Positions 57,992-59,569 of a stretch of DNA of 64,000 nt are shown here, piece after piece; positions within the stretch are counted from its first letter, which is position 1, and the number at the start of each line of letters is the position of its first letter. The position numbers were made by a program, and so were the translations under genes. The DNA is from Candidatus Micrarchaeia archaeon (GTDB lineage Archaea > Micrarchaeota > Micrarchaeia > CAILAH01), in contig JAVZCB010000002.1 of assembly GCA_038874595.1 (NCBI GenBank), positions 152,715-216,714 on the forward strand, given 5' to 3'. The notes beneath the pieces were generated by a model. It worked only from the letters and a program-made list of their open reading frames with translations. It had not been told where the DNA came from and did not search any database.

Positions 57992-59569
57992 TTATCTGTC
58001 TACAACTTCTTCATCTTCCTCTTCCTCATTTTTCTTCTCTTTCTCCTCTTTCTCCTCTTTATTCCCCCACTTCTTTTTTCCTTCCTGCATTTTCTTATAA
58101 TCTTCCTCGTCTTCGTCTTTCTTTTTCGTCTCTGCAGCCTTTTCATCAGATTTAATAACCGGTTTTAAGATTTCTTTGATTTCTTCTTTTTGTTCAGTTG
58201 TGAAAATAGCAGTGTTACGTTTTTCCTCCTTCTTTTTACCCGTACCTATCCGCCGTGGAAACTCGATGTTCTCCTCTATGCCAAGCATTTCGTTAATGAC
58301 GACAAGTGCAGTGTACCTATGCTCGCTTTCTGTATCCAACGTCTTAATCGCTTCCTTAAGTGCCAGCAGCTTTTTTCTTGTAGCTTCTTCATCTAAAACT
58401 GTTTTTCTCACAAGAGGCCCTTCACGGTGGCCAGTTTGCCTTACCTCTGTTTTAACAACACGCGTGTTTTTCTCTATAAGCTCTCTCATTTTGTTGTAAT
58501 CCTTTTCTTCCGCAGCATTAGCTATCTCCATAGCATCCTTCTTATTAATCCCGGCTGCAACAAGCTTATCAAAAAACATTTGCTTATAATCTACAACCTT
58601 TTCCTCTTGTGGTTGCTCTTCTTTAGTCATTGGGAGTTTATCTTTCTTCTCATCCTTTTTTAATGTTTTTGCCCACTCAATCAAAGCGCTGCGCGTCTCA
58701 CCATCATAGTATCCATCAACACTTTTTCCTTGCAATCCAGCCCATCTCTGCATATCCTTTATTGCATTTAAAGTCTGCTCACCAAAAACCCCATCCACCT
58801 TTATCTTATCTTTTTCGTCTTCAACGAGCTCGTTATAAAGCGCCTGCAGGATGGCAATCCTCTTATCTACCCAAATACCTCTTGCACCACCAAACCATTT
58901 CTCACCTTTCTTTAATTCAGGAAGGAGTTGCTCAACCGTCTTATAATCACCCTCCTCCATCGCCTTTGCTATCTTCTTTGCCTTCTCTGTTGCATCTGCA
59001 AGGTCTTTTTTGCCGAGTTTTGCGCTTTTAACGGCCGCCTCCTTGTGTTCCTCTTCAACAATTTTTATAGGAATAGGGCCTTCTTCAACATCCCCTCTTA
59101 AAATTTTTCTTTCCTTTTCTGTAAACACAACATTCTTCCCTTCATAAATTGTACCTATCTCTCTAAAGTGTTTTGCCTCATTCACAACTTCATCAGGTTT
59201 CACTTTCACCTTAACAGGCACAAAGCTGGTTTCTTTAAGGAAAACATAGCTTTTTGCAAGCGCTTCTGCCTCAGCGTCTTTTCCATTCTTTACAAGGTCC
59301 CACAGAGTTGCCCTTTGCGCCAGCGTAAGGCCAAGAGCATCCGCAGACTCCCACTTCAGCATCTTTGCTTCCTGAAGCGTTTTCTTTAGTTCTGAAACCC
59401 TCTCCTTACTCACGAGGCCCTTTGCGACCCACTCATCTATCTTTTTAGTGTCGTTCTTCTCAAGCATCTGCAAAACATTAATAGCGTAAACTTTCTCTTC
59501 CCCTTTTTTTCTTGGAGCTTCAAAATATGTCTCTGTCATAACCTCACCAATTATGCCTTTATCATCCAT
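57992..59569 (-). CDS. Highly charged protein with a peptidoglycan-binding (PG_binding_1-like) domain
   Basis: IAILQAL...KVDGVFGEQTLNAIKDMQRWAGL...VDGYYDGETRSAL at about 58675-58860. Confidence 0.75.
   Translation of the reverse strand: MDDKGIIGEVMTETYFEAPRKKGEEKVYAINVLQMLEKNDTKKIDEWVAKGLVSKERVSELKKTLQEAKMLKWESADALGLTLAQRATLWDLVKNGKDAEAEALAKSYVFLKETSFVPVKVKVKPDEVVNEAKHFREIGTIYEGKNVVFTEKERKILRGDVEEGPIPIKIVEEEHKEAAVKSAKLGKKDLADATEKAKKIAKAMEEGDYKTVEQLLPELKKGEKWFGGARGIWVDKRIAILQALYNELVEDEKDKIKVDGVFGEQTLNAIKDMQRWAGLQGKSVDGYYDGETRSALIEWAKTLKKDEKKDKLPMTKEEQPQEEKVVDYKQMFFDKLVAAGINKKDAMEIANAAEEKDYNKMRELIEKNTRVVKTEVRQTGHREGPLVRKTVLDEEATRKKLLALKEAIKTLDTESEHRYTALVVINEMLGIEENIEFPRRIGTGKKKEEKRNTAIFTTEQKEEIKEILKPVIKSDEKAAETKKKDEDEEDYKKMQEGKKKWGNKEEKEEKEKKNEEEEDEEVVDR

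Follow-up and report, generated by a model that had tools for sequence, protein, structure and literature searches.

A signal-less PG_binding_1 protein of Micrarchaeia paired with a giant exported protein: a candidate for bacterial wall recognition

P0001, a protein encoded in the window (the whole stretch of DNA analysed here, 64,000 nucleotides of a Micrarchaeia genome), is a member of PF01471 (PG_binding_1) by score, by fold and by motif. Its module most likely binds murein, that is, glycan strands with peptide stems, as judged from its sequence and its predicted structure. New here are the occurrence of the module on its own, without a signal and in a form specific to Micrarchaeia, the conserved pairing of its gene with that of a giant protein whose modelled tail probably forms a beta-barrel, and the fusion of the family module to a YkuD_2 domain in a relative. 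We propose, with a probability of about 0.4, that P0001 serves a contact apparatus directed at the bacterial wall as its non-catalytic, murein-recognising subunit.

The source genome consists of 917,795 bases (~0.92 Mb) on seven contigs and is 93.5% complete, and the window (Table 1) includes archaeal informational genes for diphthamide synthase, ATP-dependent DNA ligase and a Cdc48-type ATPase. Hot-spring metagenomes from two studies carry the DNA of the window nearly word for word. In the second of these studies the entire 7.6-kb cassette around the P0001 gene is intact on a single contig, with 7 substitutions and two indels, both in-frame. The two indels, 9 nucleotides out at 58037 and 3 nucleotides in after 58223, fall in the part of the P0001 gene that encodes its K/E-rich tail, and such differences between hot-spring populations explain the near-identical protein P0002 of 523 residues. 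The datasets listed as containing the P0001 gene include no RNA dataset.

Table 1. Coordinates of the P0001 gene, its parts, its neighbours and the lytic transglycosylase genes of the same genome (window numbering unless another contig or locus is named)
Feature	Position	Strand	Evidence or remark
Window	C2:152715-216714 of the source genome		
P0001 gene, stand-alone PG_binding_1 protein, 525 aa	57992..59569	(-)	ORF and translation; homologues in relatives; intact in an independent hot-spring contig
Wall-binding module, residues ~185-305	58655..59017	(-)	Pfam, AF2 model, structural matches, motifs
Pfam core of the module, residues 247-296	58682-58831	(-)	Pfam PG_binding_1
Second confidently folded domain, residues ~325-435, helices and a beta-hairpin	58265..58597	(-)	pLDDT ~90
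K/E-rich low-complexity C-terminal tail, residues ~440-525	57995..58252	(-)	Single long low-confidence helix in the model
Giant P0032, 1401 aa, Sec signal, downstream of the P0001 gene	53723..57928	(-)	Same pair in L003, L004, L006 and L007
Gene X	59622..60557	(-)	Start probably at 60416 (264 aa); found in L006 and L007 but not in L003 or L004
Ankyrin-repeat protein, first gene of the cassette	60558..61268	(-)	Pfam Ank_2 4.3e-22; likely start 61028, giving ~156 aa
SLT protein 1	L025:970-1887		305 aa, charged, without signal peptide
SLT protein 2	L026:1153-2304		383 aa, clear signal peptide

Identity of the module and architecture of P0001

The initial annotation had recognised a PG_binding_1 domain in this protein, and both profile and structure comparisons bear this out. 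P0001 scores 34.9 bits on PF01471 (E-value 1.7e-8), where the gathering cut-off is 23, the match covering positions 18-57 of the 57 in the profile, and PG_binding_3 gives a weaker match that overlaps the same region. In a six-frame search of the genome the score rises to 38.3 bits and the match is the only one to PF01471, and it is not down to chance. In an AlphaFold2 (AF2) model, residues ~210-305 adopt a fold for which solved wall-binding domains rank at the top of the structural comparison. These include the N-terminal domain of the Streptomyces albus zinc DD-peptidase (1lbu_A; Z 7.4 over 79 residues) and that of SleB (6tci_A; Z 7.3, rmsd 2.3 A, 71 of 73 residues, 28% identity), followed by SleC (9h68), CtpB (4c2c), the phage AP3 endolysin (5nm7), an L,D-transpeptidase (4lpq) and also 4xxt and 5tv7; the list includes two Clostridium wall-binding proteins. 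All Z values stay below 8, yet eight of the top 15 rows are of the wall-binding domain type. Foldseek finds the same structures with weak E-values because the query was the whole 525-residue model, and a phmmer search of P0001 against PDB sequences gave nothing significant.

The motif evidence points the same way. A consensus D-G-Pho-Pho-G-K/N-G/N-T has been derived from experimentally confirmed endolysin binding domains (Walmagh 2012, PMC3352856), and P0001 contains D-G-Pho-Pho-G-x-x-T twice, as D259-G-V-F-G-E-Q-T266 and D285-G-Y-Y-D-G-E-T292. The first copy almost equals the D-G-V-F-G-D-N-T of gp229 from phage 201phi2-1 (PMC3352856). In 11 family sequences the D, G and T of both motifs are invariant or nearly so, and the invariant positions of the family module comprise these residues together with one Q and one A. 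The PGBD fold also serves in settings without murein, for example in metalloproteinase prodomains. A prodomain of that type was considered for P0001 and rejected, since the protein has no Cys, and hence no cysteine switch, and no protease domain.

The AF2 model, built from an alignment of 11 rows, reaches a pLDDT of ~90 in only two parts of P0001, residues 185-305 and 325-435, and the remainder is predicted to be disordered or to form a long charged helix. The wall-binding module is made up of two lead-in helices, a family-specific W-F/I-G-G-x-x-G element and a three-helix PGBD core. The second domain had no usable match in the Atlas and none in PDB structure searches that used the whole-protein model, and the same searches, with the domain queried within that model, revealed no likeness to a hydrolase. 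By reading of the sequences it appears to be common to P0003, a homologue from the same genus. P0001 had further been described as a highly charged, helical protein with no signal peptide and no catalytic domain, and this description holds. K and E make up 32% of its residues and Cys is absent. Kyte-Doolittle means reach at most 0.69 over 19 residues, and the best 12-residue mean at the N-terminus is 0.71 versus 2.3-2.7 in signal-bearing neighbours, so that by hydropathy, on which all our signal-peptide and membrane-segment calls are based, there is neither a signal peptide nor a membrane segment. Pfam, PHROGs and NCBIfam contain no catalytic domain matching P0001 and no family other than the wall-binding type, and the matches to PHROG endolysins are limited to residues 226-327.

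Family, YkuD_2 fusion and gene neighbourhood

Relatives of P0001 were sought by exhaustive scoring against 1.84 billion protein representatives. This returned 28 matches, of which only about a dozen exceed the generic domain, with alignments over residues ~150-322, and a word-indexed protein search returned only a 99%-identical copy. The family is small and, within this survey, was found only in Micrarchaeia. Its module extends beyond the PGBD core, starting with the lead-in helix pair, continuing with K-G-K-x-W-I/F-G-G-A-x-G-x-W and then entering the core, and the flanks vary freely, giving lengths of 174-647 residues. Every member is charged, and by hydropathy none of the 11, nor the YkuD_2 fusion described below, has a signal peptide or a membrane segment. 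A profile of the module, run against 401 genomes of the class, matched over its full length with more than 130 bits in four genomes of the same family as the source (f1, including G000) and in one genome of f19; partial matches of 50-95 bits appeared in f19 and f15 and the others were generic domains. PF01471 itself is present in 16 of 151 genomes of the class, and most of the proteins carrying it have no recognisable catalytic domain. In three genomes of f19 and f15 (L023, L043 and L046) the module adjoins the gene for AglB and one or two FtsZ genes, and no giant stands beside the family gene. These neighbouring genes are convergent and therefore not co-transcribed. In the source genome the linkage was not found, the FtsZ pair and AglB lying on other contigs.

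One relative adds functional context to the module. In an f19 genome (G364) a protein of 339 residues, P0033, consists of the family module, including W-V-G-G (75.6 bits), followed by a YkuD_2 L,D-transpeptidase domain with an E-value of 1e-58 and intact H-G and S-H-G-C motifs, and its gene adjoins that of a stand-alone family member of 541 residues. An N-terminal PG_binding_1 domain followed by an L,D-transpeptidase is a classical bacterial architecture, and the enzyme acts on murein peptide stems. That YkuD_2 is joined to the family module in this layout is an argument for regarding the module as wall-targeting, at the least in its ancestry. YkuD_2 occurs in nine of 401 genomes, other YkuD_2 proteins of the class also being without a signal peptide, and has no match in the source genome or in any of the eight genomes of its family.

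Within the window the minus-strand order is the ankyrin protein, X, the P0001 gene and the 1401-residue giant, with gaps of 52 nucleotides between X and the P0001 gene and of 63 nucleotides between the P0001 gene and the giant. The pair of P0001 gene and giant recurs in four further loci, two in genomes of the same family and two on metagenome contigs. The complete four-gene cassette is common to the window, L006 and L007, where the ankyrin homologues have 155-159 residues, and the minimal unit, in L003 and L004, is the P0001-type gene followed by the giant. Gene X has no match in Pfam, PHROGs, NCBIfam or the Atlas. Giant homologues are present in six of the eight genomes of the family, and in one of them (G007) the giant is preceded by a different helical protein instead of a PG_binding_1 protein. 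A viral origin of the cassette was rejected, given the housekeeping neighbours in L006 and L007 (MCM, signal peptide peptidase, glutamine synthetase) and the conservation across genera. Genes resembling GlmM and GlmU lie less than 5 kb from the cassette.

The giant has a Sec-type signal peptide by hydropathy and a beta-rich tail, the last residue being W, F or Y in all five full-length copies. The model of its last 462 residues has low confidence (pLDDT 42.6) and shows some 16 long strands connected by hairpins in the last ~270 residues. With this model Foldseek returned ten matches at E <= 0.001, all of them bacterial outer-membrane barrels, as are nearly all the weaker rows; the barrels matched include Bdellovibrio OmpA, MOMP, autotransporter beta-domains, porins and BamA. 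On this model the giant probably ends in a porin-like beta-barrel. A word-indexed search with its residues 900-1401 found only the giant itself, and Omp85 (PF01103) has no match in the source genome. A complex prediction for the N-terminal 313 residues of the giant with the wall-binding module scored 0.00, which weighs neither way.

Murein-related genes in the genome and the class

The initial annotation took for granted that the organism makes no peptidoglycan, which fits our finding that Mur_ligase_M has no match in the 93.5%-complete genome, and it suggested a search for peptidoglycan hydrolases. That search yielded two SLT lytic transglycosylase domains above the cut-off, one of them on a protein with a signal peptide. 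Both proteins keep the motifs of the domain (E-S, G-L-M-Q or G-P-Y-Q, and A-Y-N-x-G), and their genes are ~78 and ~169 kb from the P0001 gene on the same contig. SLT enzymes cut the beta-1,4 MurNAc-GlcNAc glycan of the murein type, the glycan of pseudomurein being beta-1,3, and they therefore favour murein over pseudomurein as the polymer concerned. Apart from SLT, the wall-related families covered by the search of the source genome included Amidase_2, Amidase_3, Peptidase_M23, LysM and OmpA_C (PF00691), none of which has a match, and NlpC/P60, whose best score, 21.5 bits, is below threshold. Within the family of genomes the two functions do not always coincide, as two incomplete assemblies have a PG_binding_1 protein with no SLT found (G003, G005) and two others have SLT with no PG_binding_1 protein found (G004, G006). 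Across the class, SLT is present in 58 of 151 genomes. This is far above the three Micrarchaeota genomes in which Chen et al. (PMC5864196) reported lytic transglycosylases.

Proposed role and comparison with known systems

If P0001 is a murein-recognition subunit as we propose, it would be a wall-recognition protein in which the canonical PGBD is the one identifiable module and binds murein. It would be co-transcribed, and would probably work, with the downstream Sec-exported giant, as the adaptor through which a contact or attack apparatus holds on to the wall. In our view this is the most economical reading of the canonical domain with its conserved motifs, of the YkuD_2 fusion and the PG_binding_1 domain on an exported giant elsewhere in the class, of SLT genes in a genome with no Mur ligase match, and of a gene pair that recurs and a cassette that is intact in the second hot-spring study. 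Since the genome encodes lytic transglycosylases and no murein pathway of its own was found, the target would most likely be a bacterial wall, belonging to a living partner or prey or present as debris. For P0001 itself we thus infer murein binding, an extracellular location and cooperation with the giant. That a murein-walled partner is recognised had already been suggested in the initial annotation; the two SLT proteins and the YkuD_2 fusion lend this part indirect support at the sequence level, and the missing export signal throughout the family speaks against it. Because no family member has an export signal, P0001 may never meet a wall, and this is the main weakness of our explanation. 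The obstacle is not a fatal one, given that 68% of the archaeal peptidoglycan hydrolases surveyed in PMC12352652 also have no recognised signal peptide. Further points that count against a murein-directed contact function are the wall-less hosts of known Micrarchaeota, the reuse of the PGBD fold, the mismatch between PG_binding_1 and SLT proteins, the replacement in G007 and the neighbours in f19 and f15.

The missing export signal keeps three other explanations alive. The module may bind a glycan or glycoprotein of the cell's own envelope, such as an N-glycosylated surface layer or a GlcNAc polymer, and tether or organise the giant there, perhaps in connection with division, the SLT enzymes remodelling the same material. 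We consider this unlikely, although AglB and FtsZ genes stand beside the family in three genomes of f19 and f15, GlmM- and GlmU-like genes lie close to the cassette, and the wide occurrence of SLT looks like a lineage trait and not like a sporadic weapon. No Mur ligase was found in the genome, we know of no archaeal polymer that is a substrate of SLT, the f19 and f15 genes are convergent and their counterparts in the source genome are on other contigs, and the missing export signal weighs against this explanation too. Rather less probable in our view is that the PGBD has been reused as a protein-protein module in a cytoplasmic adaptor, which would act as chaperone, holdase or regulator of the giant before export. 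The absence of signals and membrane segments from the whole family, its K/E-rich composition and disordered regions would agree with such a role, as would the tight coupling to one large, aggregation-prone exported protein and the precedent for non-murein use of the fold. Against it, the murein-type motifs do not vary across the family, a pure protein adaptor would hardly be expected in fusion with an intact L,D-transpeptidase domain, and the members in f19 and f15 have no neighbouring giant.

An improbable third explanation is muropeptide scavenging, in which the secreted SLT would free anhydro-muropeptides from debris and, after uptake, the PG_binding_1 and YkuD_2 proteins would bind or trim them in the cytoplasm for amino sugars and amino acids. 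It would account for a secreted SLT beside signal-less PG_binding_1, SLT and YkuD_2 proteins and would suit a reduced genome of this size, but genes for transport or catabolism are not linked to the cassette, and the gene conserved beside that of P0001 encodes an exported giant instead of a metabolic enzyme. A different target for the same module, the pseudomurein wall of a thermophilic methanogen host (Methanobacteriales or Methanopyrales), would be in keeping with the hot-spring habitat and had been named as an option in the initial annotation. We regard it as very improbable, and as less likely than any other target, since the enzymes found alongside P0001 are of the murein type: SLT acts on beta-1,4 and not on beta-1,3 glycan, and the fused L,D-transpeptidase is of a type that acts on murein stems. 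Known pseudomurein binders, moreover, use another domain, PMBR.

Few DPANN archaea have a known host, and the known hosts of Micrarchaeota are wall-less archaea. The Micrarchaeota cited in the literature as cultivated have wall-less Thermoplasmatales as partners (PMC5864196). The idea of a non-canonical host is not new, having been published in PMC5864196, PMC8204110 and PMC9723730, and for archaea in general in PMC12352652. In Woesearchaeota and Pacearchaeota, the presence of murein-directed tools has been read as pointing to bacterial partners (PMC8204110, PMC9723730), and the same idea has been put forward for Micrarchaeota (PMC5864196); bacteria-directed wall hydrolases of archaea have been demonstrated for haloarchaeal enzymes (PMC12352652). 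P0001 would fit the published idea of such archaea handling bacterial cell walls. As a long shot, we speculate that P0001 and the giant form a grappling device for diderm bacteria: the barrel would enter the outer membrane without an archaeal Omp85, and P0001 would lock the complex onto murein after export along a so far unrecognised pathway, one that the SLT and YkuD_2 proteins without signal peptides would use as well. If this were true, there would be hot-spring Micrarchaeia with bacterial hosts or prey. The question of which organisms Micrarchaeia touch is directly testable with the module as bait, since a tagged module could be used to stain or pull down the wall of the partner from hot-spring samples.

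The nearest known systems combine the module with an enzyme. In the phage endolysin phiKZ gp144 the module is joined to a lytic transglycosylase, an enzyme class also encoded by the source genome. Together with EL188, 201phi2-1 gp229 and AP3 (5nm7), gp144 resembles P0001 in its PG_binding_1 fold, its motifs (PMC3352856) and its freedom from a signal peptide. Unlike these endolysins, P0001 has no fused enzyme, is archaeal, chromosomal and vertically conserved, and carries long charged flanks and a second domain. The best structural matches (SleB, SleC, CtpB and 1lbu) also differ from it in being bacterial, exported and attached to catalytic domains. The bacterial L,D-transpeptidases with an N-terminal PG_binding_1 domain (4lpq) share their architecture with P0033, whereas P0001 has no YkuD domain. 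A modular peptidoglycan hydrolase was rejected for P0001, as no catalytic domain and no Sec or Tat signal was found. An OmpA/Pal tether was likewise rejected, with no match to PF00691 or PF01103 in the source genome; only the arrangement, a barrel protein beside a wall binder, is analogous. Among archaeal proteins, Woldo and Danwoldo of Halogranum salarium also carry PG_binding_1 and are aimed at bacteria, but whereas P0001 is non-catalytic with a single domain, they are M23 or glucosaminidase enzymes that have Tat signals and carry their binding domains in tandem (PMC12352652). What has been reported from Woesearchaeota and Pacearchaeota (large extracellular SLT proteins) and from Micrarchaeota (lytic transglycosylases) is likewise enzymes, and P0001 is a binding protein; the available portions of PMC8204110, PMC9723730 and PMC5864196 make no mention of a stand-alone binder whose partner is a giant ending in a barrel.

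The PG_binding_1 proteins of the P0001 family, one SLT protein and YkuD_2 proteins of the class are without export signals, and this means either that an export route goes unrecognised or that these domains work inside the cell. Elsewhere in the class we came across further giants. A 1432-residue protein of G102 was rejected as a relative of P0032, to which it is unrelated. An exported giant of 1146 residues from another family (G026, L020) was rejected as a fused homologue of P0032, with no BLASTP match and an hhalign probability of 0.6% against a six-row profile, so that its architecture is analogous only. It carries PG_binding_1 directly after its signal peptide and has an aromatic last residue, and the class does place PG_binding_1 on exported proteins.

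Lytic transglycosylases and L,D-transpeptidases

The genome of the window carries two proteins with lytic-transglycosylase (SLT) domains, both with intact motifs; one is charged and has no signal peptide, while the other has one. SLT was found in 58 of the 151 Micrarchaeia genomes searched, a spread much wider than the three Micrarchaeota genomes for which lytic transglycosylases were reported in 2018 (PMC5864196). Among 401 genomes of the class, 9 carry the L,D-transpeptidase domain YkuD_2. In one genome of family f19 it is fused to the PGB module, and this protein lacks a signal peptide and retains an intact domain (S-H-G-C); other YkuD_2 proteins without a signal peptide contain K/E-rich repeats (L048, L049).

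Features in the window, its genome and related genomes
Feature	Location	Strand	Remarks
Giant protein, 1401 aa	window 53723-57928	-	Sec signal
Exported giant, 1146 aa (G026)	L020:3095-6532	-	PG_binding_1, signal peptide
FtsZ, AglB-type oligosaccharyltransferase and PGB-family genes	L043:1350-9255; L046:75-6316; L023:3613-9976
PGB module-YkuD_2 fusion, 339 aa (G364)	L043:8239-9255	-
Partial module matches	G003:C11:2760-3032; G001:C67:5892-6182; G005:C8:38544-38831; G007:C32:5817-5963; G008:C12:17684-17833
SLT protein 1	G000:C2:41698-42615 (L025:970-1887)		outside window
SLT protein 2	G000:C2:132801-133952 (L026:1153-2304)		outside window
Cys-rich secreted protein, 468 aa	window 61734-63140	+	Kazal-type domain
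Cys-rich secreted protein	L025:1-918	-
tRNA matches	window 22773-22928; 31964-32020	-	Rfam

Giant proteins with putative beta-barrel ends

The tail of the window's giant is predicted to contain about 16 long beta-strands, and structural matches of this low-confidence model are bacterial outer-membrane barrels and almost nothing else. In each of the five full-length homologues the last residue is W, F or Y, and a match for Omp85, the barrel-assembly machine, was not found in the window's genome. The giant of G026, a genome of another family, has PG_binding_1 immediately after its signal peptide and ends in G-Y-K-F. It shows no homology to the window's giant and looks like a convergent architecture that joins a wall binder to a barrel-ended giant.

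Gene neighbourhoods and population variation

Three genomes of the Micrarchaeia families f19 and f15 share a recurrent gene order, in which one or two copies of FtsZ and an AglB-type oligosaccharyltransferase are followed by one or two convergent PGB-family genes; this link of FtsZ and AglB to the PGB gene is absent in the window's genome. The window's own family has a second protein set of 580-630 aa, whose matches do not extend beyond the initial portion of either the module or the PG_binding_1 profile; the window's genome yielded no counterpart of these proteins. The two tRNA matches were obtained with Rfam and not with ARAGORN. The Kazal-type protein gene is divergent from the cassette, and a similar Cys-rich protein adjoins the signal-less SLT gene. 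Two hot-spring populations are distinguished by two in-frame indels in the PGB gene, a 9-nt deletion (window 58037) and a 3-nt insertion (58223), both in its K/E-rich tail; apart from these indels, the 7.6-kb cassette differs between the populations by seven substitutions only.
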